From Pirellulales bacterium (GTDB lineage Bacteria; Planctomycetota; Planctomycetia; Pirellulales; JANQPP01), in the NCBI GenBank assembly GCA_028289405.1, contig JANQPP010000026.1, positions 17,501-81,500 of the forward strand: a DNA stretch of 64,000 nt, written 5' to 3'. Under the pieces are notes generated by a model. That model did no database searches. It saw only the letters and a list, made by a program, of their open reading frames with translations, and was not told the origin of the DNA. Shown in pieces: positions 13,261 through 63,542 of this stretch (position 1 is its first letter; the number at the start of each line of letters is the position of its first letter). The translations under genes were made by a program, and so were the position numbers.

Positions 13261-13827
13261 ATGAGTGACGCTAGCACATGGGGATCCGTTATCGCCGAGC
13301 ATTGGCCCATCTGGTTGGTCACGGTCGTGCTCATCGTGGCCGCGGTGATCGACGGATACCAACTCAGGGTGCCCAACTGGCTGACGTTTCCCTTTGTGAT
13401 CAGCGGATGGATCTATAGTGTCGCGTTCTACGGTGGCGAAGGGCTGGGCTGGACCCTAGTCGGAACCGCCGTGGGGCTGGGACTTCTCCTGCCCGCTTAT
13501 GCCATCGGCGGCATGGGAGCCGGCGATGTCAAGCTGATGGCTGGAGTTGGAGCCTGGGTCTGGGGTACGGCTACGTTTTACGCCTTTTGCTATTCCACGA
13601 TCATCGGCGCGGTGATTGCCGTGGGCATGGTCCTCTTCCGGAATAGCTGGCGGAAACACCGTGACCAGTTTTGGGGAATTCTCACCGAGATTCTCACGAT
13701 CCGCGATCCGAACGAGCTTTCGGCGATCGCGGCGGAACGCAAGAGTTCCATGTTGTTATTGCCCTATGGAATTCCGATCGCGATCGGAACTATTGCTTAC
13801 TTCGCGACTACGGGGATGTTGATATGA
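13261..13827 (+). CDS. cpaA: Flp prepilin peptidase (A24, CpaA/TadV)
   Basis: 'AAVIDG..LRVPNWLT', 'GMGAGDVKL', 'LPYGIPIAIG'; located in the Tad locus. Confidence 0.92.
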   Translation: MSDASTWGSVIAEHWPIWLVTVVLIVAAVIDGYQLRVPNWLTFPFVISGWIYSVAFYGGEGLGWTLVGTAVGLGLLLPAYAIGGMGAGDVKLMAGVGAWVWGTATFYAFCYSTIIGAVIAVGMVLFRNSWRKHRDQFWGILTEILTIRDPNELSAIAAERKSSMLLLPYGIPIAIGTIAYFATTGMLI

Positions 13828-44527: not shown

Positions 44528-44545
44528 CGCGCGGTCGGCGCGGAT

Positions 44546-44800
44546 TTATTGCGGCGGATTGTCGGAGCGGTCCTCGGCTCTCCGCTCGGTCTCGCGGCGG
44601 TCCGTGCCCGAGCGGCGGTCGTCTGATTGGCAATCTCCAGTGCAGGGACTGCATGGTACGGGACTTGTGTGGCATGAACCTTTTGTGAGTTCCGGCACGC
44701 TGTCCCGGCGTTCGGCGATTTTCCGCCGCTCCTCGTTTTCCCGTTTCTCGATCAAATGGAGCAATTCGTCGGGAACCGGCAGAATCGTGTCATGATGCAT
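44546..44800 (-). CDS. Small (84 aa) protein with (D/E)RR repeats and a four-Cys cluster
   Basis: Starts 30 nt after the secretin stop on the same strand; 'PDELLHLIEKR..EERR...ERR', 'DRRSGTDRRETERR'. Confidence 0.65.
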   Translation of the reverse strand: MHHDTILPVPDELLHLIEKRENEERRKIAERRDSVPELTKGSCHTSPVPCSPCTGDCQSDDRRSGTDRRETERRAEDRSDNPPQ

Positions 44801-44830
44801 CGAATCGACTTTCGGATGTGATCAGATGGT

Positions 44831-46579
44831 TCAGTTTGCCACCGGTGGCGGGCCGGACGCCGGAAATGGTGGAAGCCCTTCCTGATATCCGGGCGGCGGC
44901 GACCAGGGAGCCGTGTAGCTCGCTGGCACCGCTCCCCCGAGGGAGAAGGGACGCCGGCCCTGGACCATCACGCGGTCTTGCTCAAACATAGCGTCCATTA
45001 CGGGCGGAAGGCGTACGGGACGGTGGTGTCGATGAATCGGGTGCTGACTCCAAGGGAGCGGATATTGTTTCAGTTGCTCATGCACGAGCGGAGGGTGGCT
45101 CGTCGCCGCCGGCAGGCCGGTCGCGCAGTCCACGTCACAGGGGCAATTCACCACGTGCGGCACCAGGACGATCACAACTTCGCTGCGTGTCTGTTCGTAG
45201 CGCGTCCTTTGAAACAGTTTGCCGACGAGCCATAAATCCCCCAAAATCGGCACTTTCGTCAGATCATCGGTCTGCTTCTCCTGAATCAGGCCGCCAATCA
45301 CGACGCCCTTGCCATCGGCTAACAGGACATCCGTCTCCACCTCCGTGGTGCTCTCCTCAGGCAGTTGCGTATCCGGATTGATTTCCCCTTGCGAAACTTG
45401 AGGTTTGACCCGCATGAGCACAGTGCCGTCGCGGCTAATGCGGGGCGTCACGGTGAGGATCACGCCGACGTCGAGAAAATTCACGCTCTCCAAGGAGCTC
45501 GTCTCCGTGGTCGTGGTGACGCGGAAGCCGAGCTGTTGACCGACTTGAAAACGGGCCTGCTGCCCGTTGACTACCAAGACCTTGGGAGAGGCGAGGGTTT
45601 TGGTGTCGCCATAAGATTGGAGTGCCTCCAATAAGCCATCGAATTCACTGCCATCAATCTCGGCAAAGAAGGCTTGCGGCGCCAAGGGATTCGCCAGGCC
45701 ATTGACGCTCAGGTCAACGGCGGTGCCTGATAGGTTAAAGGCCTCTTGAATATTCACGCCATGCCTGGTTTCTTCGCTCAAGGTAATTTCCAAGATGCTG
45801 GCCTCGATGAGGACTTGCCGTGGCGGGCGGTCCACCTGCGCCACGTACTGGCGGATCGGGTCCAGGAACGCCGGCAGGTCCTCGACCATGATGACCTCGC
45901 GCGAACGCAGGTTGCTGGACCGGTCGCTGGTCATGATCGTGGAGAGGCCCACCGGCGAAAGCAGTCCCTTGATGCCTTGGTCGATATCCGATGCGGCTGC
46001 GTAATCGAGTTCGAACACGGTAACTTCCCGCCCCTGAACTCCCGGCGGCAAACCGATGGATGAGGCGATGCTGGTGACGTGGATGATCCCGCCCCGGTCG
46101 TACCAGGTATATCCGCCCACGGCGAGGATGGCGTTCAGCGCCTGATCCAACGTGACGTGATGCAAGGTGATTGTCACCGATCCGGCCACATCATCGGCGC
46201 AGACGATATTCAGCCGTAGTTTTTGTGCCAGCATGGTCATCAATTCCTTGACCGGCGTATTCCGCACGGCCAGGGAGATGCGTCCGCCGTGGTCTTGGAT
46301 TTGCAAGTCCTGGTCGGACCGCGTGCCAGACAGAGGAATCCGGTGAGCCCCGGAAGGAGTCAGAATCGGCTCTCGGCCAGGTGGCGGGAGGGAACCGGCT
46401 TGGCGCAGCGCGACGCGCGGCCCGCGTGAAGCAGGAGGCGCGTTCCTGGGTGCCGCTTCTTGAGCGGCCATACGTGCTGTTAGCACCAGAAACATCGTGG
46501 CCAGCAACACTCCCCGCGACAGCAAGGCGCGGCGAATACTGCAGGACTGTTTTTCCCTCGGCGTGGAGTCACGCATCAT
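44831..46579 (-). CDS. Secretin (PilQ/GspD-like; STN + N-domain + barrel)
   Basis: 'DRPPRQVLIEASILEI', 'LASPKVLVVNGQQARFQVG', 'DVGVILTVTPRI', 'KVPILGDLWLVGKLF'. Confidence 0.93.
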   Translation of the reverse strand: MMRDSTPREKQSCSIRRALLSRGVLLATMFLVLTARMAAQEAAPRNAPPASRGPRVALRQAGSLPPPGREPILTPSGAHRIPLSGTRSDQDLQIQDHGGRISLAVRNTPVKELMTMLAQKLRLNIVCADDVAGSVTITLHHVTLDQALNAILAVGGYTWYDRGGIIHVTSIASSIGLPPGVQGREVTVFELDYAAASDIDQGIKGLLSPVGLSTIMTSDRSSNLRSREVIMVEDLPAFLDPIRQYVAQVDRPPRQVLIEASILEITLSEETRHGVNIQEAFNLSGTAVDLSVNGLANPLAPQAFFAEIDGSEFDGLLEALQSYGDTKTLASPKVLVVNGQQARFQVGQQLGFRVTTTTETSSLESVNFLDVGVILTVTPRISRDGTVLMRVKPQVSQGEINPDTQLPEESTTEVETDVLLADGKGVVIGGLIQEKQTDDLTKVPILGDLWLVGKLFQRTRYEQTRSEVVIVLVPHVVNCPCDVDCATGLPAATSHPPLVHEQLKQYPLPWSQHPIHRHHRPVRLPPVMDAMFEQDRVMVQGRRPFSLGGAVPASYTAPWSPPPGYQEGLPPFPASGPPPVAN

Positions 46580-46591
46580 GAGGATCCTTCT

Positions 46592-47161
46592 CTATTCCGT
46601 GGATGATTCCAATTCAACCAGGGTCACGCCGTCCAAAGAAATTTGCGTGACACGAAGTCCGCCAAACACATCCCCCACGCGGACTTCCCGATTGCCGATC
46701 GCCGCGACTGCTTCCTCGCGTGAGACGACGACCCAGCGGACGCCTTGTTCCCGAATTTCTTTTAAGATTCTATCTCGGGCCGCCTTGGCCGCGGCGGCAG
46801 CTTCCTCCGCCGGATCGGGACCTTCTTCCGTGGCCGTGATCTGGTTCGCGGGAGTGGCATCGTGCCACGGAGGAGCCATGCGAAAGGGATCATGTTGGCG
46901 GACATGGGCCACCTCCATGACGGGCCAAGGGCTTGTCGTTTTCTCCATCTCGGCTCCCAATCCAGGCTTTTGGGCTAGCTTCTTGGGCTGGCTTCTTTCC
47001 TTGGTGGCAGCCGTGTCATTCTCCGGGACGGTCGCCGTCTCGCTCCTCAAATCTCCAAACTGAATTACGCACGTCATCACGAGGATCACGGACAGGATGC
47101 CGACCAATGCCAGTCTTCCCGGGGTCGCTCCAATTTTTTCCTGCCACGTTAATTCATGCAT
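46592..47161 (-). CDS. PilP/GspC-like membrane-anchored alignment protein
   Basis: N-terminal TM, 'HDPF', C-terminal 'AAIGNREVRVGD..GG.RVTQI..DGV' beta domain; sits between PilO and the secretin. Confidence 0.6.
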   Translation of the reverse strand: MHELTWQEKIGATPGRLALVGILSVILVMTCVIQFGDLRSETATVPENDTAATKERSQPKKLAQKPGLGAEMEKTTSPWPVMEVAHVRQHDPFRMAPPWHDATPANQITATEEGPDPAEEAAAAAKAARDRILKEIREQGVRWVVVSREEAVAAIGNREVRVGDVFGGLRVTQISLDGVTLVELESSTE

Positions 47162-47741
47162 GGCGCGACGGTCCTTCCGAACTGCCCGGCTGGAGGCGAA
47201 AGTAGAGCATCAGTCGCAACTCGAACGGATAGACATCCTCACCCCTAGACGGCTCAATTTTCAACTCGCGTGCCGTAGTGAGGCGAGGCAGTTCATGCAA
47301 GCGCGCGAAAAATTCGCAAATCGCATGGTAGGTTCCCTCGCATTTCAAATAAGCCTCAAACTGGGCATGCCGCTCATGCGATTCGACTTCCCCGGGCGTG
47401 TATTCGCGCAACCTGACTCCCGTTGCGTCCGCGATTTCGGTAATCATCCGCAGGAATTCCGCTTCACGAGGCTCTTCGGGAACGCGCTGGCGGATCGCTT
47501 CGGCAGGTTGAAGCATGCCCATCAGCGTACGCTGCAATTCGGCGTGTTTGGAACGCAAACCGGGCCCCGCCAGGAACTGATCCCGGAGCCATTTCACGTG
47601 TTCTCGGTCCCGCTCATATGCCCGAGCCAGGGGGAAGGCCACGAGTTGGCCATACGCGAACAGGCTGCCGACCAGGAGCGTGAACCCCGTGGCGTGCAGC
47701 CACCAACCGAGCCTCGTATGAAAGTTCCCTAAGATCTTCAT
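47154..47741 (-). CDS. pilO: PilO-like protein
   Basis: TM + coiled coil + 'RVPEEP.EAEFL..I...A...GV' and 'GTYHAICEFFARL..LPRL'. Confidence 0.82.
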   Translation of the reverse strand: MKILGNFHTRLGWWLHATGFTLLVGSLFAYGQLVAFPLARAYERDREHVKWLRDQFLAGPGLRSKHAELQRTLMGMLQPAEAIRQRVPEEPREAEFLRMITEIADATGVRLREYTPGEVESHERHAQFEAYLKCEGTYHAICEFFARLHELPRLTTARELKIEPSRGEDVYPFELRLMLYFRLQPGSSEGPSRHA

Positions 47742-47761
47742 GGAGTGAAAATGTCTCGCGC

Positions 47762-48334
47762 TCAAAAATAGCAATGCACGTGGTAGTCATGCACTTCTTT
47801 GCCATGCAGTTGTCCGACGCCCGTGGAAACCAGCGAGATCTCACGGAATCTGCCACTTTCCCTCAGCAAGGCAACGAACCGCGCGATGGACACTTGGTCC
47901 ACGCTCCAGCCCTGTAACTCGATGCGCCGCGGGCGGGCCGTGTTCTGGTGGTCTCGCGTAAAGTGCAACTTCTTCACGGCGACCTTTCCTTCGCACCCGT
48001 GTGCGGCCTGGCTCACCAAACCTAGCAAAGTGATCAAGGGCTGCTCAGTGGCCAATTCTCGAACCAGGGATTGCCGCTGGCGCGTGTCGAGGATTTGCCT
48101 TTGCACTTGTTGGATCCGCCGTTGTAGGCGGTTTAGCGGTTCATATTCGGCTTCCCAGTTCGCCGCCAAATCATGCGTGGATTCATACCGCCGCCAACTC
48201 CACGCGGCGTGACACGACAAGCCCGCCACGGCGATGGCGTAAACCGTGAGCCAAAACCGGAGGCATTGCCGTAGCGATTCCGACCGCTTGTAGGGCTCGG
48301 GTAATAGGTTCATGAAGGACTTCATCCGGGCCAC
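47762..48334 (-). CDS. pilN: PilN-like protein
   Basis: 'MNLLP' PilM-binding motif, TM, coiled coil, 'IELQGWS...IARFVALLRESGRF'. Confidence 0.85.
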   Translation of the reverse strand: MARMKSFMNLLPEPYKRSESLRQCLRFWLTVYAIAVAGLSCHAAWSWRRYESTHDLAANWEAEYEPLNRLQRRIQQVQRQILDTRQRQSLVRELATEQPLITLLGLVSQAAHGCEGKVAVKKLHFTRDHQNTARPRRIELQGWSVDQVSIARFVALLRESGRFREISLVSTGVGQLHGKEVHDYHVHCYF

Positions 48335-49401
48335 CTCGGCAATAGGGAGAGCGAAATCGCCGAGGCCAGCAGTTCCATTGGAAACCGCGAGTCGGCCCCA
48401 TCTTCCAACTCAGGCCAATGCCAGCGCCGCACGGGCAGGCGGCACCTTTGGTCGAGATAATGGTCGATATGCCGGACCGTCGCCCCGCCTCCGGTCAAAT
48501 ACAGTTGGCGGGGACTCCAAGAAGAATGCTGCGTGCGGAGGTACAGCAAGGTCCGTTGCAACTCTTCCAGAAAACCTTGCATGAAATCGTGCAAACATTC
48601 CTCAATCGCGGTTTGAATGCGGGCCTCTTCCAGGTCCGTCTCGCCGGCGGGGAAGCCGTGATTTTGCAGCAGCTTCCGTGCTTCGTCCCGCGTCGCGTGC
48701 AATTGCTGGCAGAGCGTGGCGACCGCCAGATCAAACTGGCAATCACGCAGCACGCGAACATAGCAAGGCGTGGCGTCCTGGACGACACAGAACGTGACCC
48801 GCGAGCATCCCCAGTCAATCACTGCCACGGGGCGCGACGTGGACCCCATGAGGCTTGCCGCGCGGCTGAGCGTGAAGGGGAGCCCGTCGAGGACTCGGCC
48901 CGACAATCCCGCCGCCCGCAGGTCCTCGCCCATTTGCTCCGCCCAGGCCGCGCGGATGGCGAGCACATTCTTTCGGTGGTGTTCCGATTCCTCCTCCATG
49001 GCAGGCAACAAGCGTGAAACGGGAACGTCCCAAGCCGCCATTTCCCAAGGCCCCAAGCCGCCCAATCCACACTGTTGAAGCTGCTGCTGGGCCTGCTGTC
49101 GCCATTCGCGCTCATCGCGAGTTTGCACCTCGATGGTGCGGTGGTCGCAGAGGGCCATGGGCAGCAGACACGCGGCGGGGCGTCCACGAAACCGTGGACC
49201 GAGTTGCAGACCAGCGGTGATTTCCTGGGAGGACGTTTCGGGAGCGCGCGTCAGCCAGTCTTCGGCGGTCCAGGGTGGAGAGCGCAGGATCACCTTGGCC
49301 TCCGAGAGACGCCATTGGCCTCCCTTGCGGTGAAGCTGGGCCAGCTTCACCGCGTGGCTGCCCACGTCGATGCCGATCCATCCGTTGCGTTTACTCCACA
49401 C
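48322..49401 (-). CDS. pilM: PilM-like actin-fold protein
   Basis: 'IGIDVGSHAVKLAQL', 'VIDWG', 'ELQRTL.Y', 'LYLTGGGA'. Confidence 0.87.
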   Translation of the reverse strand: MWSKRNGWIGIDVGSHAVKLAQLHRKGGQWRLSEAKVILRSPPWTAEDWLTRAPETSSQEITAGLQLGPRFRGRPAACLLPMALCDHRTIEVQTRDEREWRQQAQQQLQQCGLGGLGPWEMAAWDVPVSRLLPAMEEESEHHRKNVLAIRAAWAEQMGEDLRAAGLSGRVLDGLPFTLSRAASLMGSTSRPVAVIDWGCSRVTFCVVQDATPCYVRVLRDCQFDLAVATLCQQLHATRDEARKLLQNHGFPAGETDLEEARIQTAIEECLHDFMQGFLEELQRTLLYLRTQHSSWSPRQLYLTGGGATVRHIDHYLDQRCRLPVRRWHWPELEDGADSRFPMELLASAISLSLLPRWPG

Positions 49402-49473
49402 GCCCTCTGCTCCTGTTCCCTTCCTGCATTCGGGTCCCGGTCATTCACCATTTGAGTGGCTCGCCGAGCGGAT

Positions 49474-49752
49474 CTAGTGAGCTGGTTCTGCTTGCGAAAC
49501 CACGTGCTTTTCCAGTCGTTCCAACCGCTGGTCAATCCGCTGCAGCACCGCGAGCATCTCCTTCAGCACGATTTCGGAGCGGGCTCCCCCACTTTGAAAC
49601 GCGCGACGCGGTGGGGTTTCCCGTACGTCGGCGTCTGAAGGGGAACCGGTCCAAGCCCAGGCGGCGGCAATCAATAGGAGGCCCAGCAAAGGGCCGCGCA
49701 AGCCATTCAGCAAGGCTTCTTGCAGCACGCGGTGCAATCTAGAAATACACAT
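49474..49752 (-). CDS. Small membrane protein with C-terminal coiled coil (92 aa), function unknown
   Basis: AGGGAG Shine-Dalgarno just after the pilC stop; TM 'PLLGLLLIAAAWAW'; 'VLKEMLAVLQRIDQRLERLEK'. Confidence 0.7.
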   Translation of the reverse strand: MCISRLHRVLQEALLNGLRGPLLGLLLIAAAWAWTGSPSDADVRETPPRRAFQSGGARSEIVLKEMLAVLQRIDQRLERLEKHVVSQAEPAH

Positions 49753-49765
49753 AAAAAAGGACTCC

Positions 49766-50989
49766 CTAATACGTTTGTTGTGCGAAGGTCGTAAGGTCGA
49801 AGATGGGAAACAACACCGCCATGACCACCACCGCCACGGCCAATCCCATGGCAATGGTGAGGGTCGGTTCCAAGATCGTGATCAGCTCGCGTAGCCGCGT
49901 TTCCCCCTCTTCCTCGAAGTGCTCTCCAATGAGCTGGGTCACCATGCCTAGCGTTCCCGTTTGCTCGGCGGTGATCATCATTTCAGCGGCGGTGTCCGGC
50001 ACGAAACCGGATTCCAACAGAGCCGTTCCCAGCCCTCTACCATTCAGCACGTCCTGCTCCATCTTGACGAAGAGTTCGTGATAATACGCGTTCGAGACGG
50101 TGGTTTTCGCTAGGCGTAGACTTTCGAGCAGAGGCACGCCGCTGTCGATCATGATTCCCAGCAAGCGGCAAATGCGCCCGATCAGTAGCGCCCGCGTGAC
50201 GTCCCGCACGAGGACGACTTGGAGCAGCAAGCGGTCGGTCAAGCGACGGAGGTGGCCACTCTTTCGCCACCACCAAGCCGCCACGACGATGAGACTGATC
50301 ATGGGTAACCATAACCACGCGCGTGCCCGCACTTCAGCGGCGACCGCCACGAGGCACCTTGTGAGGATCGGTAGCGGCGTTTCGAATTGAGCAAAGACCT
50401 CGGCAAAGCGAGGCAAAACCAGCAGCACCAAACCGCACAAGACGAAGCTGGAAACCACGGTGAGCACCAGCGGATAGGCCAGTAGGCCCCGCAGCGTGCT
50501 ATCGCGGCGGAGCTCGCTACGTTGCAGTTGGGCGAGTTGGCTCAGTACGTCGGTCATTTTCCCCGAGGCTTCCCCCGCCGTGATGCTGGCGATGTACGTG
50601 GGTCCGAAGATCGCCACATATTCGGAAAGGGCCTCGGAAAAAGAATTACCCGCCACGACGGAACGGTGGATCCCCAGCAGGATTTGCCGCATGGCTGGCT
50701 GCCGGCTCTGGCGGGCCAGGGTTTGCAAGGCGGTGGAAATATCGACGCCGGCACGCGTCATCACGGCCAGTTGCGCCGTGAGATGTGCCAAATCTCTTTT
50801 CGGTACGCGATTTCCACGTGGCAAACCGGCCAGGCTGGTTCGAGATGTTTTTCTCCCGATTTTAGGGAGATCTTCCGTGCCGTCCCACACGCCTTCCATG
50901 CCGCGCAAGGGTACGGTTCGCCCGCCGGACAGTTCCGTTGTCCGCGAGGATTCGTTTGGAAATACGCGTTTTTGTTCGGTGACTTTCAT
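49766..50989 (-). CDS. pilC: PilC/GspF inner-membrane platform protein
   Basis: 'QLAVMTRAGV', 'AGEASGKM', 'LAYP', 'SGVPL', 'AEQTGTL', 'LEP'. Confidence 0.93.
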   Translation of the reverse strand: MKVTEQKRVFPNESSRTTELSGGRTVPLRGMEGVWDGTEDLPKIGRKTSRTSLAGLPRGNRVPKRDLAHLTAQLAVMTRAGVDISTALQTLARQSRQPAMRQILLGIHRSVVAGNSFSEALSEYVAIFGPTYIASITAGEASGKMTDVLSQLAQLQRSELRRDSTLRGLLAYPLVLTVVSSFVLCGLVLLVLPRFAEVFAQFETPLPILTRCLVAVAAEVRARAWLWLPMISLIVVAAWWWRKSGHLRRLTDRLLLQVVLVRDVTRALLIGRICRLLGIMIDSGVPLLESLRLAKTTVSNAYYHELFVKMEQDVLNGRGLGTALLESGFVPDTAAEMMITAEQTGTLGMVTQLIGEHFEEEGETRLRELITILEPTLTIAMGLAVAVVVMAVLFPIFDLTTFAQQTY

Positions 50990-51040
50990 GGCTTCTTAAG
51001 GGATGCGATGGAAACACGCGATGGCCTTTCCGTTTGAGCA

Positions 51041-52825
51041 TCAAGCGAACGCCGCGACCCTTGCCACCTCCTCCAAGCTCGTAATCTCTTGTTCGGCGAG
51101 CCGAAATCCCTCTTCCAGCAGGCCGTGTCCTCCACGGGAGAGAAACCAATTGCGTATTGACTCCAAGCTGGCGTTCTGGGTGACCATTTCCCGCAATTCC
51201 TGGTCGAACTCCAAAATCTCATAGATGCCGGTTCTTCCGCGAAATCCCGTGTCCAGGCAGTCCCGGCAGCCCTCGCCTCGGGCGAAGGTGCGGCGCTTGT
51301 CGCCCGGATAGTGCAACGCCTCCAGGAAGTCGGAGGAGGGGTAATACACCGTGCGGCATTTTGGGCAGATCGTGCGAACCAGCCGCTGTGCCACGACCCC
51401 AATGACCGACGCACTGACCTTGTAGGACTCCACGCCCATATCCATCAGCCGCGTGATGGCGCCGGCGCTGTCGTTGGTGTGCAGCGTGCTCAGCACCAAG
51501 TGCCCGGTGAGTGCGGACTGCACGGCGACTTGGGCGGTCTCCGCGTCTCGAATTTCTCCCACCAGGATGACATCGGGGTCTTGCCGCAAAATGGAACGGA
51601 GCGCCGTGGCGAAGGTTAGCGAACGGGTTTTGTCGACTTGCACTTGATTGACCATCTCAAGCTGGTATTCCACTGGATCCTCGACGGTCACGATGTTGCT
51701 ATGCACGCTCTTGATCAGTTCGATGGCCGAGTACAGCGTCGTCGTTTTGCCGCTGCCGGTAGGTCCCGTGACCAAGAGCAACCCGTGCGGGCGTTTCAAA
51801 AGCCGTTTGAGTAGCACCAAGTGGTCCGGCGGAATGCCCAAAGCGTCGAGATTGAAGGTGAGCCGTTTTCGGTCGAGCACCCGCACCACGACCTTCTCCC
51901 CCAGAACCGTGGGCAGCGTGGAGATGCGTAGATCGACCTCCTTGTGTTCCACCGCGACTTGGCACCGCCCGTCTTGCGGTACGCGGTGCTCGGCAATGTC
52001 CATCCGGCCCATGACCTTGATCCGGGAGACGATCGCGGGATGGATGTCACGACGGGGCCTGAGCACTTCCAGCAGTTGCCCGTCGATGCGGAAGCGGACC
52101 TTGGTGGACTTTCGGCCCGGTTCGATGTGAATATCGCTGGCGCCACGGCGAAGCGCTTGCAGAATCAGATAGTTGACCAAGTTGATGACGGGGCTGCCTT
52201 CCACCAACGATTCGACCGAAGCGACGTTCAGGTCGAGCGTATCGGCTTGCAGTTCCACCGCCTGTTCATCCAGGTCGGCGGTGACTTCATCGACTTCGAA
52301 ATTCTCTTCGTAGCAGCGGGGCAACATCCTCTCGAGGTTGCTGCGAAACGCGAACACGGGCCGGACCCGCTTCCGCGTGATTTCCTCGAGTTCATCGAGG
52401 TATTCCAGCTTTTGCGGTTCCGACATGGCCACGGTCAATTCGTCGTGGACACGGAACATGGCGATGGCGCCCAACCTTTCCGCGACGGACCGCGGCAAGG
52501 ACCGCACGACCGCGGGATCGACCAACCCTTCTCGCAAGCGGACCGCAGGCAGTCCCAATTGCCGTTCGATGAGCGGCAGCAATTGCTCCTCCGTCACCAC
52601 GCCCATGGCGACCAAGGCTTCCCCCAGCCGTTGGCCTTCCTCGGCTTGCAGCCGCAGCGCGCCTTGGAGCTCATCAGACGTGATGAGCCGCAGGTCCACG
52701 AGCATTTCTCCCAAAGGGAGGCTGCTCGTGGGGGCATGGTCCAAAGAGGCATGCAGCGCGCGGCGGGAATGTCGCGTCTCCGGCACTAGGGAGGCGAGCG
52801 GGCTGGACTGGTCAATGATACTCAT
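51041..52825 (-). CDS. pilB: PilB/GspE extension ATPase with N-terminal MshEN-type domain
   Basis: 'ASDIHIEP', 'PQDGR', Walker A 'GPTGSGKTT', 'LRQDPDVILVGEIRD', 'TLHTN', CPKC...CRDC Zn motif; tandem MshEN-like repeats. Confidence 0.95.
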   Translation of the reverse strand: MSIIDQSSPLASLVPETRHSRRALHASLDHAPTSSLPLGEMLVDLRLITSDELQGALRLQAEEGQRLGEALVAMGVVTEEQLLPLIERQLGLPAVRLREGLVDPAVVRSLPRSVAERLGAIAMFRVHDELTVAMSEPQKLEYLDELEEITRKRVRPVFAFRSNLERMLPRCYEENFEVDEVTADLDEQAVELQADTLDLNVASVESLVEGSPVINLVNYLILQALRRGASDIHIEPGRKSTKVRFRIDGQLLEVLRPRRDIHPAIVSRIKVMGRMDIAEHRVPQDGRCQVAVEHKEVDLRISTLPTVLGEKVVVRVLDRKRLTFNLDALGIPPDHLVLLKRLLKRPHGLLLVTGPTGSGKTTTLYSAIELIKSVHSNIVTVEDPVEYQLEMVNQVQVDKTRSLTFATALRSILRQDPDVILVGEIRDAETAQVAVQSALTGHLVLSTLHTNDSAGAITRLMDMGVESYKVSASVIGVVAQRLVRTICPKCRTVYYPSSDFLEALHYPGDKRRTFARGEGCRDCLDTGFRGRTGIYEILEFDQELREMVTQNASLESIRNWFLSRGGHGLLEEGFRLAEQEITSLEEVARVAAFA

Positions 52826-53157
52826 TGCAGGAAGCTCCCCACGGCGGACTTCACATCCTCGAAGACTTCGAACCGCTCCCCCACGCCCGTCGCTCGTAGA
52901 ATGTCTTGGCAGAGAGGATTTGGCGCCGCCAGTTTCAGCACCCCACCTCGATGTAGGCTGCGTTCCCGGGCATCCAGCAGGAATTCCATCCCCCGGCTAT
53001 CGAGCAGCGGCGTCGCCTGCAAATCGAATACGATTCGCGGCGGAGCGCGTTCGAGACAGGGAGCCAGGGTTTCCATCAACGTGTCCAGAGTGGACAAGTG
53101 GATCGGTTCTTGTCCCCGAATCACGTCCACGGTACCTTGCCGGCTGCAGTGAAACAT
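52822..53157 (-). CDS. STAS domain (anti-sigma-factor antagonist-like) protein
   Basis: 'IVFDLQATPLLDSRGMEFL', 'GG.LKLA...ILRATG'; phosphorylatable Ser in 'DS'; ATGA overlap with the ATPase gene. Confidence 0.9.
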   Translation of the reverse strand: MFHCSRQGTVDVIRGQEPIHLSTLDTLMETLAPCLERAPPRIVFDLQATPLLDSRGMEFLLDARERSLHRGGVLKLAAPNPLCQDILRATGVGERFEVFEDVKSAVGSFLQ

Positions 53158-53168
53158 CCTTGTCGCTC

Positions 53169-54989
53169 CTACGCCACGGGCAGAGATACGGTAAACGTGC
53201 TTCCCTTGTCCCATTCGCTCTGAACGGTCAATTTGCCGCCATGCAACTGCACGACCTCGCGCGCCAGGGAAAGCCCGAGCCCCGTGCCGGATTCATGTTG
53301 GACGCGTTGGTCTTGGCCTCGAAAGAACTTATCGAAGACATGCGGCAGGTCTTCTTCGGCGATGCCGATGCCCGTATCCGCGATGTCGACCAATAATTGG
53401 TCCTGTTCGATGCGGATCCGCATCGTGACACGGCCTTCTGCCGGTGTGTACTTCGCGGCATTCCCCAGCAGGTTGATGAGCGTGGCGGATATCTTGTCCT
53501 TGTCGATATGCATGGACGGGAACTTGGCGGGCAAGTGGCACTCGAACGTGATGTGCTTTTGCTCCATCTGGGGACGTACTTTGGTGATCACTTCCTTGAG
53601 CAGCCGTTCCAGATCCACGTTTTGGCGAGTGAGTGTCAGCGAACCCACTTCGATGCTGCTGATGCTCAGCAAATCATCGATCAGCCGGGCCAGCCGCGTG
53701 GCTTCGGCATTGATCGTGTTGCAAAAATCCTTTTGTTGCTCGACGTCCGCCATGTCACTCAAGACGAGCGTCTCGGCGTAGGCCTTGATGTTCGCCAGCG
53801 GGGTGCGTAGTTCGTGCGTCGCGGAATCTAGGAATTGGTCCCGCATCTTGTTGGCCAACTTTTGTTGAGTGACATCCCGGACGGTCCAGACGTGCCCTAC
53901 CCCTGTCTCGCTGTCGCTGGATCGCAGGGGCTGCCGGGAAATTCGCAGGACCCGCCGGTCTTCCCCTTCACCGCTGGGGATTTCTTGAATGCAGGTCCTT
54001 TGTGACGGTTCGTTGAACAACTCCTGGGCCGTGCGGGGCATATCGGCCAACTTCCAGCACTCGTGGATGTTCCTGCCCTCCAGAGCGTTTTCTCCGTCGG
54101 GAGCCACGAGGGCGCGGAGGACGTCGTTGGCAAACAGAATGCGTCCTTCCAAGTCGGTGGCGGCGATTCCGTCGGGCAGGCTCTGGAGAATAGCCTCGAC
54201 TTTTTGGGCCTGACGGTTTTCCAGCGCTTCCCTTAGGCGTTTTCTCCATTCATGCGATTCAGCTTGCGCACGCAGATGTTCCACGACGCGGTTCCAGCCC
54301 CGCAGCACGGCGAGATTGCCCGGCAGCGTGGGAGGCGCGAAATCCGAGAGCACGGGCTGAATGGCGGCCTCACGAAGCTGATGTTCCAACTTGCGAAAAG
54401 GAGCCACCAAGCGATTCAGCGCGACCGCTCCAGCCGCTAGCAGAAACAAGGAACCACATACCACCCAAGGCCCCAGGCCCTTCCCCCAGATCCACGCCGA
54501 GGAAAGATCCGGCTCCGCGATGGCGACCACGAGCGTACCCACTTTTTCTTGTTGGGCTTTCAACGGAATACGGAATTGCCAAGAAGCGGGCCTGTCGCCG
54601 TGGGAAATGTGCCGTCCCGACAATCCGTTCCAGCGGATTCGCCAGGAGTTTTCCTCCAAGGGTAAACCGGCTTTCCATTTCTCCGGCCATTCCGCGATCT
54701 GTTGCCCATTCTCGTCGAGGGCCGCGCAAGCTAAGAGTTCCCGTGTTTCGCCGAACTCGCGCAGAAGTTCTTTGGCCCGTCCTTGGTCGTTTCGCAACAG
54801 GGACAGCACTAAGGAAGACTCGATTTTTTCCAGCCCTTCCAAATGGCGCCGTGCCGTGCCGTGCAGGATGGCCCGGCGGCTGGCCCATGCTCCGCCCACC
54901 AATACACAGACGAGTGCCGTCAGGCTGAACAGCAGATAGTAGCTGATCACCTTTTGCGGCAGCGCAAGTTGGCGGGACTTTTGTAACAT
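53169..54989 (-). CDS. Membrane PAS sensor histidine kinase
   Basis: Two TMs, PAS 'ILQSLPDGI..TD..GRILFAN', H-box 'HELRTPL', 'NLLGNAAKYT', 'DTGIGI', 'GTGLGL'. Confidence 0.95.
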   Translation of the reverse strand: MLQKSRQLALPQKVISYYLLFSLTALVCVLVGGAWASRRAILHGTARRHLEGLEKIESSLVLSLLRNDQGRAKELLREFGETRELLACAALDENGQQIAEWPEKWKAGLPLEENSWRIRWNGLSGRHISHGDRPASWQFRIPLKAQQEKVGTLVVAIAEPDLSSAWIWGKGLGPWVVCGSLFLLAAGAVALNRLVAPFRKLEHQLREAAIQPVLSDFAPPTLPGNLAVLRGWNRVVEHLRAQAESHEWRKRLREALENRQAQKVEAILQSLPDGIAATDLEGRILFANDVLRALVAPDGENALEGRNIHECWKLADMPRTAQELFNEPSQRTCIQEIPSGEGEDRRVLRISRQPLRSSDSETGVGHVWTVRDVTQQKLANKMRDQFLDSATHELRTPLANIKAYAETLVLSDMADVEQQKDFCNTINAEATRLARLIDDLLSISSIEVGSLTLTRQNVDLERLLKEVITKVRPQMEQKHITFECHLPAKFPSMHIDKDKISATLINLLGNAAKYTPAEGRVTMRIRIEQDQLLVDIADTGIGIAEEDLPHVFDKFFRGQDQRVQHESGTGLGLSLAREVVQLHGGKLTVQSEWDKGSTFTVSLPVA

Positions 54990-55082
54990 GGCGAATCGGG
55001 CGCGCTCGATTGGAATTGGCGGCTAATTCTCAGTAGGCCGTGACGGAAAGCAGGGCGGATGCCGTATCTCGAGCAGCGCTGG

Positions 55083-55499
55083 TTAAACACCGGCTTGCTT
55101 GGGCTCGTTTTCGTCCAGGCGTTCCAAGCTGGCCTGAAGCTCGCGAACCAACTCCTGCGGGCTGAACGGTTTGGCGAATATCGCCGTGATTTGTAGCTCG
55201 TCGCGGAGCAGCCCGAGGTTCAGTTCCAATCCTTTGGCCGTGAGCAGGATGATGGGCAAATGCTCATATTTGGGTTGCTGCCGCAAACGACGGCAAAGTT
55301 CCGTTCCCGTCAGGCCAGGCATTTGGTAGTCGGTGATGACGGCATCAAAGTTTCTGTTCTGCAATACTTCCCAGGCTTCACGGCCATCGTTGACGGTCGT
55401 GGTCTGACACCCTGCTTCTCCTAAGTTGAACTCAATCACTCTCGCCAGCGTGGCATTATCGTCGGCAATCAGCACGTGCGGTTTCGTGTGAGGTGTCAT
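55083..55499 (-). CDS. Single-domain response regulator (CheY-like)
   Basis: 'LIADD', 'ITDYQMPGLTG', 'LLTAKG', 'KPFS'. Confidence 0.95.
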   Translation of the reverse strand: MTPHTKPHVLIADDNATLARVIEFNLGEAGCQTTTVNDGREAWEVLQNRNFDAVITDYQMPGLTGTELCRRLRQQPKYEHLPIILLTAKGLELNLGLLRDELQITAIFAKPFSPQELVRELQASLERLDENEPKQAGV

Positions 55500-55844
55500 T
55501 CAATTGGTCCTTCATTGGCTGGAGCCGCTTCTCGAATTTACATGATCGCGCATATCACGGAATCCGCTACGAATCATCGACGCGAGAAAGGCGGCGGCTT
55601 CGTTAAACTTCGCAAAAGCAGAAAAAATTTCCTAAAACCCCCATGCCAACGCCCTGGAGGCAACCAGATTTCGTTTAACTCGAACTGCCGCCATAGGATC
55701 TGTTTCCAGACATCGATGGCTGGGACGATATCCGCGCGTCGCGGGCTTGATACGTGAAATGTCCCCTCGCAGAACGCGATGGTCACGCTTATGTGAAAGG
55801 CTTGATTGGGCAGCCCCGACGAAACTCTGGTGAATATGCCTTGC

Positions 55845-55876
55845 TAAAAAAGGCAGCGAGCTCGCCTCCGGAGCTG
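55845..55876 (-). terminator. Possible terminator after the pilin gene
   Basis: Minus strand GCAGCTC-CGGAGGC-GAGCTCGCTGCC-TTTTTT: imperfect stem plus U6. Confidence 0.45.
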
Positions 55877-55888
55877 CAAAACGGCTTC

Positions 55889-56329
55889 TTAGAGTTGGTT
55901 GTACGTGATGGCGTTATCGCTTGCGAGTGTGTCCGTCGAGTTGACAATGAAGTCGCCGGTTTGGTTGTTGTACTGCCATCCTTCCGACGGGGATGCGTCC
56001 GCTACGGGTCCAGCCGCATCGGTCGAGATTTTGATATTCGCATTTTTTGCCCCTACAGGGCACCTTGGGAACGTGCCACGAAGATACGGGTCAAGATCGG
56101 CAAGAAAGCCCGCTTGCGTCGCGTCCGTAGTCGCTGGCAACGAACCGGCGTTTTCCGCGGCGTACAGCTCGATCGCATTACGGACCACCGCGAGGGTTTG
56201 GCGAATACCGTTGTCGGTCGCCCTGGCGGAAGTATTGAGAAACTTTGGCGCGGCCACAGCGGCCAAAACTCCCAAGATCATCACCACGACGACCAGCTCC
56301 ACCAGGGTAAATCCACGTTTGCGTTTCAT
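55889..56329 (-). CDS. Type IV pilin / GspG-like major (pseudo)pilin
   Basis: 'MKRKRG|FTLVELVVVVMILGVLAAVAAPKF', 'AIELY....G.LP'; 146 aa. Confidence 0.92.
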   Translation of the reverse strand: MKRKRGFTLVELVVVVMILGVLAAVAAPKFLNTSARATDNGIRQTLAVVRNAIELYAAENAGSLPATTDATQAGFLADLDPYLRGTFPRCPVGAKNANIKISTDAAGPVADASPSEGWQYNNQTGDFIVNSTDTLASDNAITYNQL

Positions 56330-56708
56330 CGCAGCGTTTCTCCAGACTTCGAGCATGTTTTTTTCGCTTCCTGCACCACTTTGATGCACTGCCTGATGCG
56401 TGTGGAGTCCCTTGCTAAAAGAATTTAGGTCATGGAAAGCGGGCAAAACGGCATGTAGCCAAGAGATGCCGTCGCTGACTCAAGGGTGGTAGTATCCGAT
56501 AGGGAAGATACGGAGGTTTCCGATTATGCCGGTCGAGTAGAGGAATTCGTGGATAAATTCGTCACCAGTCCCATCAGTGTTCTAGATTTGTCTTAGACCA
56601 AATTTATTCGCGGCGCTCCTGGCATCATTGCTCAAGGCCAATCTCCTTCCTTCCACTGGTCTCGCGAGCCGTGCCGGGCAGCCGCATTGCAGGGAGAATA
56701 GGCGGCTC

Positions 56709-58388
56709 ATGATTCTCAATCGGGCTCTCTTGAAAGGCACGGACCCGCGCGTGGCCGCTTCTCTCGTGGAGTGGACCCGGGAAGTGCAGGGAGAGCTGAG
56801 GAATCTTCTCGATGAGGATCCGGCCCTGTGGTTTCCCTCCTCATCTCCAGAGCCCTTCGTGGCGCCGCGTTGGGCACCTTTGGATCTGGAACGTGGCCTG
56901 GTCTTTCCGCTCGCCGAAGACGTGATGCGAGCGACACTCGGGCAATGGGAAATGGATGGCTACGAAACCCTGTTCGTGGAACAAGACGGAAAGAGTGGCT
57001 GGATCGTCGCGCCGTTCCTGTTCAATGAAAACCTGGCCCTGGTGGCCACTTGTGAAACCTCCTCGGAGGAAGCACCTTCGCGGCTCAGGTTGATGCGGCT
57101 GTTTCAGAAAGAGTGGGAACAACGGAAACAGTTGGCCCGCCTGCAACGTGAAAACGAAGCCTTCGCCATGCAAGTCACCGAAGACTTCGAACAACTCACC
57201 TTCTTGCGCCGCATGGCCGAGCAATTGGAAACGACGAATCTATCGCTCGATCTGCTGGAGATGGCCGAGAACATCTTGCCGGTGTTGCTGGACTTGATCC
57301 ATGCCGAAAGTCTCGTGCTGATCCTCGAACCAGCAGAAGGAGACGCGGATCAGCGGAGCCTATTCACCTACTGGACAGGACCGGTATTGTTTTCCGACGC
57401 GATCTGTAACCGGATCGTATCCGAATATCGGAACACCGCGCTACGGCGGCCCGTGGTCCACAACCATTACCAGGAAAGGCCCGAGGCTTACCGCTTTCCA
57501 GAGGTGCGAGAATTGATGCTCGTGCCCGTGAACAAATCGACCATGCTCATGGGCTGGCTGATGGCCTTTAATCATCGGCCTGCCACGGGCGACACGGGGC
57601 ATCAAGCAATTTGGCAACATGCCCCCCAGGAATTTGGCACCTGTGAAGCCACGTTGCTGTCTTCCGCCGGATCGATTCTCGCGTCGCATGCCTACAACGT
57701 GGAGCTGTTCCGGGAAAAGGAACAACTGCTGGTCAGCATGGTACGATCCTTGGTTTCGGCCATCGAGGCCAAGGATGAATACACCAGCGGGCACAGCGAA
57801 CGCGTGGCCCTGTACTCTAAATGCCTCGGCGCGGCCTGCGGTCTCGACGAGAAGGCATGTGATCGGCTCTACCTCACCGGTCTGCTGCATGACATCGGTA
57901 AAATCGGCGTCAGCGACGCGACGCTGAAAAAGCCGGGTTCATTAACCGACGAAGAATTCGAAGAAGTCCGCCGCCACCCGGAAAAAGGCTGGTACATTCT
58001 GCAAGATCTCACGCAGTTGAGGTACGTGATGCCCGGCGTCGTGCACCACCATGAGCGCTTCGATGGAAAAGGGTATCCCGACGGGTTACAAGGAGCGCAA
58101 ATTCCACTCGATGGCCGGATCTTAGGAGTTTGCGACGCCTTCGACGCCATGACCAGCGACCGCCCCTATCGGCCAGGGATGTCACTGGAAAAGGCGACCG
58201 CGATCCTCCAAAAAGGCGCGGGAACCCAATGGGATCCCGAGATCGCGGAGACATTCTTGGAGATCATGCCCACGATCCTCCACATTCGAGAGACCCACAA
58301 AACTCAGCCTCGCTTGCCGCGCGCGAAACGACCGGTGGCGGCCGAGTTGGACCCGTCATCTCCCGCCGTCCCCGTGCACGTGCCTTGA
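56709..58388 (+). CDS. HD-GYP phosphodiesterase with N-terminal GAF-like region
   Basis: 'KDEYTSGHSERV', 'LLHDIGKIG', 'HHHERFDGKGYPDGL', 'DAFDAMTSDRPYR', 'GTQWDP'; start uncertain (56628 or 56709). Confidence 0.93.
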   Translation: MILNRALLKGTDPRVAASLVEWTREVQGELRNLLDEDPALWFPSSSPEPFVAPRWAPLDLERGLVFPLAEDVMRATLGQWEMDGYETLFVEQDGKSGWIVAPFLFNENLALVATCETSSEEAPSRLRLMRLFQKEWEQRKQLARLQRENEAFAMQVTEDFEQLTFLRRMAEQLETTNLSLDLLEMAENILPVLLDLIHAESLVLILEPAEGDADQRSLFTYWTGPVLFSDAICNRIVSEYRNTALRRPVVHNHYQERPEAYRFPEVRELMLVPVNKSTMLMGWLMAFNHRPATGDTGHQAIWQHAPQEFGTCEATLLSSAGSILASHAYNVELFREKEQLLVSMVRSLVSAIEAKDEYTSGHSERVALYSKCLGAACGLDEKACDRLYLTGLLHDIGKIGVSDATLKKPGSLTDEEFEEVRRHPEKGWYILQDLTQLRYVMPGVVHHHERFDGKGYPDGLQGAQIPLDGRILGVCDAFDAMTSDRPYRPGMSLEKATAILQKGAGTQWDPEIAETFLEIMPTILHIRETHKTQPRLPRAKRPVAAELDPSSPAVPVHVP

Positions 58389-62501: not shown

Positions 62502-63542
62502 TTATTGCAGGATTCTCGACATGTCGACAGCGATCCCATCCACGGGAGAGCAGAAACGGTCCCAAGGCGCGAAGAAGTCGCCATATTCGCCGGAAGTCTC
62601 TACAAAGTTGCTGATGAAATGGACGCTGGCATCGGCGGTCGCCGCGTGAACACCGCCTGGATGCAAGCTACGGGGCGCGGCTTGCCAACTCACGTTGCAA
62701 TCCCGCCAGCAACTCATGCAGGCAGCGTCGAGGACGGACTCACCCACGTTACTTGGGTTAACGAGCCACGGACAGTCCTCGATATCGTCCGATCGCTGAT
62801 TACAGGGATTTGGGCCGTTGGCATCCCCATTAAGGCCATGTTTGAATAGCCCGCTCGCTCCAGCGGTCCCCATGGCCCACACGCCTCGCCGGTCGCGTGC
62901 ATGGATCTGGCCGCCGTTACGGACTTCCGACAGCAACATAGTGTTGGATGTGCCGTCGCTAATCTCGGCGATGGAGAGGGAACGATTGTGCGACATGACC
63001 CCCATCCGTTCCGGATCGGACGTCCAGCTACCGAGAGAGTCGCTAGAGAATTCAAGCGAACCGTTGCAGGCATAATTGCCCCGGGCCCAGTTATCCCCTT
63101 CCTGACGTTGGCGTCCTTCACCAAATTTGACGTTGTGGCCAGCGTCTGACGGGCAGACGAAGCTGGAAACCACGACGCCCCTCGCCTCCCGGTTGTTAGC
63201 GTGGCTGATGAACTGCGTGAGGTCGAAAGAGTCCTGGAGGGCCTGCTGTTCCATGAAGGGGAGAATGTTGATGATCCAGTTTGGTTGAAACTGATCGCTG
63301 GTGGCGGGGTTTTCTCCCTCGGGAAACACGATTCCTGGGGGAAACGCCTTGTGTTGATCGTGATAATTGTGAAGAGCCAAGGCCGCTTGCTTCAGGTTAT
63401 TTACGCACTGCATGCGGCGGGCCGCTTCCCGAGCCGACTGGACGGCGGGCAGCAACAGCGCCACCAAGATCCCGATAATTGCAATTACCACCAACAGTTC
63501 CACCAAGGTGAAACCATTCGCTGAACGTCCTCTGTTTGCCAT
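62502..63542 (-). CDS. DUF1559 prepilin-type protein (H-X9-DG family)
   Basis: '[37 protein letters not shown]', 'ISDGTSNT', 'SLHPGGVHAATADASVHFI'; GGAGGAGG Shine-Dalgarno. Confidence 0.95.
   Translation of the reverse strand: MANRGRSANGFTLVELLVVIAIIGILVALLLPAVQSAREAARRMQCVNNLKQAALALHNYHDQHKAFPPGIVFPEGENPATSDQFQPNWIINILPFMEQQALQDSFDLTQFISHANNREARGVVVSSFVCPSDAGHNVKFGEGRQRQEGDNWARGNYACNGSLEFSSDSLGSWTSDPERMGVMSHNRSLSIAEISDGTSNTMLLSEVRNGGQIHARDRRGVWAMGTAGASGLFKHGLNGDANGPNPCNQRSDDIEDCPWLVNPSNVGESVLDAACMSCWRDCNVSWQAAPRSLHPGGVHAATADASVHFISNFVETSGEYGDFFAPWDRFCSPVDGIAVDMSRILQ

Follow-up and report, generated by a model that had tools for sequence, protein, structure and literature searches.

A STAS protein as candidate cofactor of a type IV filament extension ATPase in Planctomycetota

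Type IVa pili (T4aP), as they are known from Myxococcus xanthus (3jc8), Pseudomonas and Geobacter (PilB, 5zfr and 5tsg), are among the described machines closest to the gene cluster treated here, in which a small single-domain STAS protein is encoded directly before a PilB/GspE/MshE-type extension ATPase and may serve as its dedicated cofactor. The cluster lies in a 64,000-nucleotide stretch of DNA (hereafter the window) on contig C82 of a Pirellulales bacterium, the genome of which spans 6.4 Mb in 219 contigs and is 94.6% complete. As in the T4aP, PilM, PilN and PilO are encoded by separate genes, the ATPase is of the PilB type and carries N-terminal domains and a zinc site, and PilC, a PilQ-like secretin and a prepilin with a G/FTLxE N-terminus are present. 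The cluster differs from them in that it contains no PilT, PilD or minor pilins, the protein in the PilP position belongs to no family, the secretin has no Pfam AMIN domain and all NCBIfam equivalog cut-offs are missed, and in that STAS, kinase and receiver genes are placed between the pilin and the ATPase. The mannose-sensitive hemagglutinin (MSHA) pilus of Vibrio cholerae offers another comparison. Here, too, the ATPase exceeds the cut-off of the model for the MshE-related cyclic di-GMP (c-di-GMP) motif, the pilin is nearest to MshA, and the cluster has no retraction ATPase of its own. In contrast to MSHA, motif I of the ATPase deviates at two conserved positions, and the cluster also includes a STAS partner along with genes for a kinase/receiver pair and HD-GYP. 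The msh gene order also differs from that of the window. In the excerpted text of PMC9815625, MSHA likewise relies on PilT.

Small proteins that act on extension ATPases, or on ATPases more generally, provide a second set of comparisons. For instance, PilZ of Xanthomonas binds residues 12 to 163 of PilB and bridges it to FimX, as described in the available portion of PMC8389850. As far as that portion goes, the likeness lies in a protein of about 110 to 120 aa on the N-terminal domain of an extension ATPase (here in a model) and in a c-di-GMP-related protein within the same control. However, STAS is of another fold and family than PilZ, and an apparently active HD-GYP enzyme is found here, as opposed to the degenerate GGDEF-EAL receptor described there. 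PilZ on PilB is the nearest functional analogue, and STAS may work in the same way without belonging to the PilZ family. The STAS profile also matches, weakly (E 0.0028), the STAS chain of the MlaFEDB entry 7ch8, which we take to be MlaB, binding the ATPase MlaF. MlaB resembles the protein described here as a small STAS protein that is the dedicated partner of an ATPase (predicted in our case), although the MlaFEDB ATPase is of the ABC type and not a PilB/GspE hexameric motor. Lastly, in the partner-switching modules SpoIIAA–SpoIIAB and RsbV–RsbW, the phosphorylated residue of SpoIIAA and RsbV is a loop serine, and HsbR–HsbA of Pseudomonas is a receiver-coupled module of this kind. The cluster shares with such modules a single-domain STAS protein with a loop serine and adjacent two-component genes, but neither a GHKL serine kinase nor a PP2C phosphatase is encoded in it, the serine is not present in every STAS sequence, and STAS is predicted to pair with a pilus motor, not with an anti-sigma kinase.

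Searches of open full text turned up no paper that describes either this planctomycete cluster or a STAS protein as partner of PilB/GspE, subscription journals and supplements lying outside their scope. In the sections available of a 2024 review of PilB cofactors (PMC11656802), neither ‘STAS’ nor ‘anti-sigma’ occurs, nor do they speak of STAS, kinase and receiver genes placed between pilin and ATPase, and those on effectors treat PilZ/FimX, CpiA and phage peptides. An earlier sequence-only reading of the DNA had put the cluster forward as its best candidate for an undescribed system, and no description of it came to light in the papers searched, as far as their accessible text extends.

Read along the minus strand from 56446 to 44546, the cluster begins with the prepilin, a receiver-only regulator, a PAS histidine kinase, the STAS protein, an MshEN-type PilB/GspE ATPase and PilC, and continues with a small membrane/coiled-coil open reading frame (ORF), PilM, PilN, PilO, a 189-aa protein in the PilP position, the secretin and an 84-aa ORF. 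A gene for a tandem GAF-like HD-GYP protein lies on the plus strand, divergent from the pilin (Table 1). The sequence-only reading had given this order and these domains, on which the ORF list, Pfam and NCBIfam agree, and its tight junctions were found again as overlaps of 4–13 nt and gaps of 11–72 nt from the kinase onward. STAS and the ATPase overlap by 4 nt, PilM/PilN and PilN/PilO by 13 nt each, and PilO and the PilP-position gene by 8 nt. The kinase and STAS are separated by 11 nt if STAS is counted from M20, like its homologues, and the remaining junctions from the kinase onward measure 12–72 nt; the pilin and the regulator stand 389 nt apart. Judging by the sequence, STAS probably starts at 53157 (M20), later than the longest ORF (52822–53214), and the pilin probably at 56329, later than the 56446 of its longest ORF.

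The linkage of STAS to the ATPase was followed in three samples of loci. For the first, the STAS protein of the window was searched in 40 genomes of the same order, 26 of which gave matches, and the best-match locus of 20 was taken; in seven of these loci the STAS ORF was missed by tblastn and was read directly as the ORF between receiver and ATPase. An ATPase of 42–68% identity lay directly downstream of STAS in 18 of the 20 loci, together with the kinase and PilC in all 18 and with the receiver in 17, one contig ending early. Two arrangements can be told apart among them. Four of the 18 have the window's order (pilin, response regulator (RR), histidine kinase (HK), STAS, ATPase, PilC, PilM, PilN, PilO, in places PilP, and secretin), and 14 have a second arrangement in which a secretin precedes HK-RR-STAS-ATPase-PilC at some distance and PilMNO are not nearby. 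The secretin of this second arrangement has a GspD N0 domain and a weak T2SSB match. One relative (G020) carries both, the window's order on contig C119 and the second arrangement on C330, so the two are paralogous systems; its ATPase on C330 is 67% identical to that of locus L005. The genome of the window has only one of the two.

The second sample was obtained with the ATPase as single query, independent of STAS, and comprised 80 loci from 185,579 species genomes. At an ATPase identity of at least 60%, a STAS-profile match stood directly upstream in 17 of 17 loci, with the full order of the window wherever the contig permits. In Phycisphaerae, at 48–49% identity, HK-STAS-ATPase-PilC was found in six of seven loci, the contig of the seventh starting inside the ATPase, and the single locus labelled Desulfobacterales reads RR/HD-GYP-STAS-ATPase-PilC. 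The 4-nt stop–start overlap of STAS and ATPase seen in the window recurs in 17 of these 24 ATPase-found loci. The remaining 55 of the 80 loci, from other Planctomycetota, Bacillota, Pseudomonadota and more, gave no STAS match apart from four weak ones in Comamonadaceae. These four (L071, L074, L077 and L078; Giesbergeria and Simplicispira) match the STAS profile at E 3e-3 to 3e-6 with an ORF of about 105 aa that has a DT/DS loop and lies 100–120 nt upstream of an N-terminally shorter PilB-like ATPase, after which come PilC, a pilin and a distant secretin. As for the locus labelled uncultured Desulfobacterales (L040), its ATPase nests in the planctomycete STAS-linked clade, and it could represent gene transfer or a mis-binned contig.

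In the third sample, a STAS profile was run over 301 Planctomycetota genomes and the top locus of 20 genomes was taken. Where the profile matched at E ≤7e-26, the ATPase was downstream in 14 of 14 loci; where it matched at 1e-23 to 4e-20, in none of six. The profile also matches generic STAS genes, at 1e-12 to about 1e-23, and only matches of ≤7e-26 are validated; at least 28 of the 301 sampled genomes have a STAS match of ≤1e-25 among the matches listed, which is a rough lower bound. Among the 14, L108 and L110, which come from a different order within the class, show the window's arrangement, and operons of the form HK-RR-HD-GYP-STAS-ATPase-PilC were found in other Planctomycetota (L112, L119 and L127–L129). 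The sequence-only reading had made its case depend on the signalling genes being syntenic in relatives, and they are: kinase, receiver and STAS precede the ATPase across Pirellulales, kinase-STAS-ATPase is found in Phycisphaerae, and HK-RR-HD-GYP-STAS-ATPase in other Planctomycetota. By these gene orders, the ATPase subfamily is Planctomycetota-wide and is always directly behind a dedicated STAS gene of 108–111 aa, usually with overlapping codons.

In a FastTree phylogeny of 104 ATPases, those linked to STAS fall together in a single clade (SH-like support 95), the 44 rows of which are 43 linked sequences and one from a cut contig. The clade is split into the second arrangement, with 14 rows (support 100), and a subclade of 30 rows (support 99) that holds the window's arrangement, the Phycisphaerae and the Desulfobacterales-labelled row. 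PilB/GspE paralogues of the window's genome, two on contig C72 and one on C136, fall outside. The same clade was recovered in a quick IQ-TREE run under LG+C20 with 34 rows (SH-aLRT 93), where a branch with 97% support lies between it and E. coli GspE; the placement of E. coli HofB, which has a long branch in that tree, is unsure. The closest named relatives of the ATPase come from Pirellulales genomes (Lacipirellulaceae, Thermoguttaceae and Pirellulaceae).

Structure prediction places the STAS protein on this ATPase. The STAS family has a conserved DS.G loop and an AV.SF C-terminus in family alignments. For the complex, the full-length ATPase and STAS were each supplied as their own unpaired 34-row alignment, and the resulting models reached ipSAE values of 0.77, 0.74 and 0.77, while none of the three controls scored above 0.00. 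Of 157 solved complexes, 116 reach the score mark, as do 2 of 215 mismatched pairs, figures that apply only roughly here, our own alignments having been used. The runs share at least 90% of contacts, with a predicted local distance difference test (pLDDT) score of at least 86 for the partner. The predicted interface joins ATPase residues 93–133, 155–157 and 178–184 to STAS residues 50–58, which include S54, and 80–92, and it lies on the second N-terminal domain of the ATPase, right after the c-di-GMP-type double motif. Several ATPase residues on this surface are specific to the clade: D103 is present in 43 of 43 sequences inside the STAS-linked clade and 5 of 48 outside, F124 in 42 of 43 and 2 of 48, and G100 in 29 of 43 and 0 of 48. 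Conservation of the interface against the rest of the domain is 0.67 versus 0.55 inside the clade and 0.36 versus 0.45 outside. No complex of STAS with PilB/GspE was listed when the PDB was searched by sequence, once with the STAS profile and once with the ATPase, so it is unlikely that the model owes its score to memory. The model thus supports binding of STAS to the N-terminal domain of the ATPase.

The ATPase comprises the c-di-GMP-type double motif (aa 37–89), the second N-terminal domain (aa 90–173, the Pfam MshEN match) and an ATPase core with a four-Cys zinc site, in which Cys 487, 490, 520 and 523 are invariant. NF053729, the model for the MshE-related c-di-GMP motif, scores 58.9 bits over aa 37–89 against a cut-off of 38. 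The published MshEN motif consists of two 24-residue units and a 5-residue spacer (PMC5013675, in the part available), and motif II of the ATPase fits it except for an L-to-I change at one position, with the 5-residue spacer kept.

The signalling genes around this motor comprise a kinase whose periplasmic stretch of about 135 aa is enclosed by two membrane helices and precedes the PAS domain, and a receiver in which Pfam finds no output domain. The HD-GYP protein has intact motifs, LLHDIGK and HHHERFDGKGYP (HD, HHExxDGxGYP), and from these it is apparently an active c-di-GMP phosphodiesterase. Its N-terminal 370 aa have no Pfam match. An AlphaFold model (mean pLDDT 75) shows two helix-plus-sheet modules joined by long helices, and the best Foldseek match, 4mcw, covers 390 alignment columns and reaches beyond the HD-GYP domain; it is followed by 4r8z, 9rbz, tandem-GAF phosphodiesterases and phytochromes. 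The label ‘GAF-like’ given in the sequence-only reading is therefore apt, there being two modules in the model and tandem-GAF matches in Foldseek. The divergent HD-GYP gene is present in 11 of the 13 loci of the window's arrangement whose contig reaches far enough, and in L112, L119 and L127–L129 it lies inside the operon directly before STAS. Long frames that looked like HD-GYP–STAS fusion proteins were set aside, the HD-GYP match being in another reading frame and Pfam finding only STAS; these are adjacent genes. In one locus with the window's gene order (L003 13861–14436, plus strand), a prepilin with a GspH domain stands in place of the divergent HD-GYP gene and is followed by a 551-aa protein without a family.

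The sequence-only reading of the locus as a type IV filament cluster with embedded signalling genes is upheld by the components recognised in Pfam and NCBIfam and by the synteny of the signalling genes. What kind of filament machine it builds can be judged from several scores. Among PDB sequences, the closest solved ATPases are the T4aP PilB entries 5zfr (462 bits) and 3jc8 (457), with GspE at 392; the secretin scores about 106 bits with T4aP PilQ versus 88 with GspD; and the top match of the pilin is Vibrio cholerae MshA 9lab (2.2e-11, aa 1–93). In NCBIfam, the ATPase scores 563.7 as GspE and 559.4 as PilB, both under the cut-offs, the top model for PilC is GspF (268 bits against a cut-off of 424), that for the pilin is GspG, cut-off missed, and that for the secretin is PilQ (205 bits against 284). 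PilM reaches 72 bits with TIGR01175, where the cut-off is 133, and exceeds its Pfam cut-off, as PilO does its own. In the secretin, an STN/N0-like and one Secretin_N domain are accompanied by a C-terminal tail rich in Pro, and Pfam reports no AMIN domain in it. The 189-aa protein was found by tblastn at the same position in many loci of the window's gene order; its neighbours in the atlas are planctomycete hypothetical proteins, and in one such cluster T2SSB is found on 14% of members. The small membrane/coiled-coil ORF, the protein of which probably starts at an internal Met near 49752, is also present between PilC and PilM in L025, L027, L039 and L110 (tblastn). On the sequence evidence, the machine leans towards a T4aP/MSHA-like pilus outside every curated subtype, a secretion machine being less likely.

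With moderate confidence, we propose a T4aP/MSHA-like pilus machine in which the extension motor has a dedicated STAS cofactor and receives inputs from a kinase/receiver pair and from c-di-GMP through HD-GYP and MshEN. Gene content, synteny, the ATPase clade and its clade-specific surface residues are observations and STAS–ATPase binding is a prediction; the direction of control, c-di-GMP binding and the site of receiver action are what we infer. STAS would be a stoichiometric cofactor, made together with the motor. Its serine loop and the helix that follows would dock on the second N-terminal domain of the motor (aa 93–184), beside the four-helix double motif (aa 37–89), and, once docked, STAS would determine whether the motor can engage the PilM/PilC platform, either by permitting this or by preventing it. 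Environmental input would pass from the membrane PAS kinase to the receiver-only regulator, and the GAF-like HD-GYP phosphodiesterase would lower c-di-GMP near the motor. Control by the kinase/receiver pair and HD-GYP would adjust the state of the motor post-translationally, because the receiver lacks an output that could bind DNA. For a retraction ATPase, a prepilin peptidase and minor pilins, the machine would depend on other loci of the genome.

The sequence-only reading had cast STAS in a partner-switching role, and the classical form of that idea would make it an anti-sigma-factor antagonist whose conserved serine receives phosphate from an RsbW-type kinase and loses it to a PP2C phosphatase encoded elsewhere, acting on a sigma factor or another target, its position beside the ATPase reflecting co-expression. 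The nearest solved relatives of the STAS profile are indeed the anti-sigma antagonists TM1442 (1.4e-13), TM1081 and SpoIIAA, the DS.G loop serine S54 is kept in at least 90% of 34 aligned sequences, and the genome has four HATPase_c_2 and four SpoIIE/PP2C proteins over cut-offs. However, neither enzyme turned up in the cluster, in the genes flanking it or in those loci of relatives that were scanned, and the serine is replaced by Gly in 4 of the 24 ATPase-found loci (L034, L035, L038 and L050, related and Lacipirellula-like), which, with none of these enzymes in the cluster, speaks against an obligatory phospho-switch. From a general sigma regulator one would not expect strict adjacency, the 4-nt overlap and a single ATPase clade; in the model, the serine loop rests on ATPase residues that are specific to the clade, and the REC-HATPase_c_2 genes of contig C217, described below, are not beside PilT in five relatives. 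This part of the sequence-only reading finds no support in its stated form: we regard classical partner switching as distinctly improbable, and STAS as a direct cofactor of the motor is the better reading. Elements of both may be combined in a partner-switching circuit in which the pilus ATPase takes the place of the anti-sigma factor. In such a circuit, the serine loop would sit on the Asp103/Phe124 patch of the motor's N-terminal domain, beside the c-di-GMP site; serine phosphorylation, or competition by the phosphorylated receiver, would free the motor; and STAS may bring in the HD-GYP enzyme, which would then break down c-di-GMP locally, where the receptor for it lies. It would be Planctomycetota-wide and might include the STAS–ATPase pair on contig C106 (see below) and the weak Comamonadaceae cases. 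All of these steps holding jointly is a tentative idea that we think has some chance of being right, though well short of an even one.

A different objection concerns the machine and not its regulator. If the cluster encoded a type II secretion system (T2SS) or a short endopilus secretion device, STAS, kinase and c-di-GMP would gate export. The near-equal scores of the ATPase as GspE and PilB and the best score of PilC as GspF keep a secretion role in view; GspG is in turn the top NCBIfam model for the pilin, all three below cut-offs, PilT is not in the cluster, and the secretin of the second arrangement has the GspD-type features noted above. Moreover, MshEN-type ATPases serve T2SS and type IV pili alike, according to the excerpt of PMC5013675. 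Against this stand the absence of any Pfam or NCBIfam match to GspC, GspL, GspM or a minor pseudopilin (GspH-K) in the cluster, the T2SS-like cluster that the genome carries separately on contig C136, T2SSJ and T2SSK included, PilM, PilN and PilO as separate genes in T4aP fashion, solved-structure matches that favour PilB, PilQ and MshA, and the position of E. coli GspE outside the ATPase clade. On balance, a secretion device is unlikely, but it deserves more weight than the classical sigma-factor circuit. The same cannot be said of mere coincidence, in which the signalling genes would be chance neighbours of an ordinary paralogous pilus cluster with no functional tie. Two-component and STAS genes abound in planctomycete genomes (215 of the 301 have a STAS-profile match of ≤1e-12), and the six fetched STAS genes of weaker score have no ATPase nearby. 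Yet STAS, kinase and receiver stay with the ATPase clade across families, orders and classes despite changes in gene order, the paralogous clusters of the same genome are without signalling genes, and the loci are not near-copies of one lineage, with ATPase identities of 42–70% and named families that differ; chance is accordingly a very remote prospect.

Several points weigh against the proposed pilus with its STAS-bearing motor. Binding of STAS to the ATPase is a prediction made with unpaired alignments of our own construction, and the interface-conservation check shares sequences with the model input and is not independent of it. PilN and PilM are under curated cut-offs, the PilP-position protein is without a family, and the NCBIfam GspE, GspF and GspG models score equal to or above the pilus models, no equivalog cut-off being reached. 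The receiver is without an output domain, and any link from it to STAS, the ATPase or HD-GYP is putative. The HD-GYP gene is found in 0 of the 14 loci of the second arrangement and is therefore not an obligate part. Finally, in motif I of the ATPase the first Arg is replaced by Pro and the turn Gly by Arg. Most ATPases from loci of the window's arrangement likewise have Pro, where those of the second arrangement and of Phycisphaerae retain Arg or Lys. In the accessible text of PMC5013675, changes of Arg9 shift affinity by no more than fivefold, and the motif Gly is required for the helix turn. These deviations make c-di-GMP binding by the ATPase uncertain, and c-di-GMP control of the machine is, on its motifs and genes, plausible.

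PilT, a prepilin peptidase and minor pilins had been reported missing from the cluster, and neither Pfam nor NCBIfam finds them there; all are present elsewhere in the genome. Three PilT-family ATPases score over the cut-off, and Peptidase_A24 is found as a PilD-like frame on contig C93 and as a shorter frame in the window at 13315–13623. The latter, on the plus strand about 31 kb from the cluster, matches Peptidase_A24 at 67 bits within a 199-aa open frame that is shorter than the one on C93. The window also encodes, at 62502–63542 on the minus strand, a DUF1559 (SBP_bac_10) protein that bears the N-terminal methylation motif of prepilins; proteins of this kind had been named in the sequence-only reading as possible suppliers of minor subunits. 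The genome has 12 T2SSE-family ATPases over the Pfam cut-off. Contig C72 carries a PilB-PilT-PilB-PilC cluster and two prepilin genes, and contig C136 a T2SS-like cluster with an ATPase, GspF, three prepilin genes, T2SSJ and T2SSK; a scan of both loci found no STAS gene in either. On contig C106 (L023 4257–5848), another STAS gene (119 aa, PF01740 3.7e-15) has a 4-nt overlap with the gene of a 411-aa T2SSE ATPase that has no N-terminal domains, followed by a family-less ORF and an ABC ATPase, with no PilC nearby. Given this pair, the STAS–T2SSE pairing may reach beyond pilus clusters. On contig C217 (L134 4757–8153), a PilT-family ATPase has REC-HATPase_c_2 (RsbW-like serine kinase) genes on both sides. 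These were considered as STAS kinases and dropped, being absent (E ≤1e-20) or not beside the PilT orthologue in five relatives, and no claim is rested on them.

The neighbours of the cluster are a MOSC gene and a family-less ORF on one side and RsmH/MraW on the other; they are unrelated to it, so that bounds of 44546–58388 hold. The 84-aa ORF at its end is without a family and an ORF similar to it was found after the secretin in L039 only (tblastn of the relatives' loci), and for these reasons it may not be a gene; on the sequence, its reality is doubtful. A hairpin between this ORF and the convergent upstream gene is possibly a bidirectional terminator, but it is suggestive by position only, the region containing 15 terminator-like sites against a shuffled expectation of 15.2. 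A promoter scan of the region returned no sigma-70-like sites.

Table 1. Features of the filament cluster, in window coordinates
Feature	Position	Strand	Evidence or remark
GC-rich hairpin with T-runs on both strands	44528..44542		Between the last cluster ORF and the convergent upstream gene
ERR/DRR-rich 84-aa ORF	44546..44800	-	No Pfam or NCBIfam family
Secretin, PilQ-like	44831..46579	-	PF00263 2e-42
PilP-position protein, 189 aa	46592..47161	-	No Pfam family
PilO-like alignment-complex protein	47154..47774	-	PF04350 1.9e-9; syntenic in relatives
PilN-like alignment-complex protein	47762..48334	-	PF05137 2.6e-4, under gathering score; syntenic in relatives
PilM-like actin-fold cytoplasmic platform protein	48322..49401	-	PF11104 3.8e-9; TIGR01175 3.8e-20
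Small protein with one membrane helix and C-terminal coiled coil	49474..49854	-	No Pfam family
PilC/GspF inner-membrane platform protein	49766..50989	-	PF00482 5.1e-47, two repeats
PilB/GspE/MshE-type extension ATPase	51041..52825	-	T2SSE 4e-138; MshEN 2e-17
Single-domain STAS protein, 111 aa from M20	52822..53157	-	PF01740 3.6e-12; stop overlaps ATPase start by 4 nt
Membrane sensor histidine kinase	53169..54989	-	PAS, HisKA (H-box HELRTPL), HATPase_c; syntenic in relatives
Receiver-only (CheY-like) regulator	55083..55499	-	PF00072 1.8e-22; syntenic in relatives
Major prepilin, KRGFTLVEL leader/N-terminus	55889..56329	-	N_methyl 3.3e-9
Tandem GAF-like sensor with HD-GYP phosphodiesterase domain	56628..58388	+	HD_5 1.5e-40

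How type IV pilus extension motors are turned on and off is under active study, and few protein effectors of these motors are known. If the reading given here is true, a STAS protein tied to a whole motor clade across a phylum would be a new class of effector, and the fold of partner switching would be linked to filament assembly. The pili and secretion machines of Planctomycetota have barely been studied, and the D103, F124 and S54 interface, together with the kinase, receiver and HD-GYP inputs, would provide a testable handle on surface attachment and the life cycle in this phylum.

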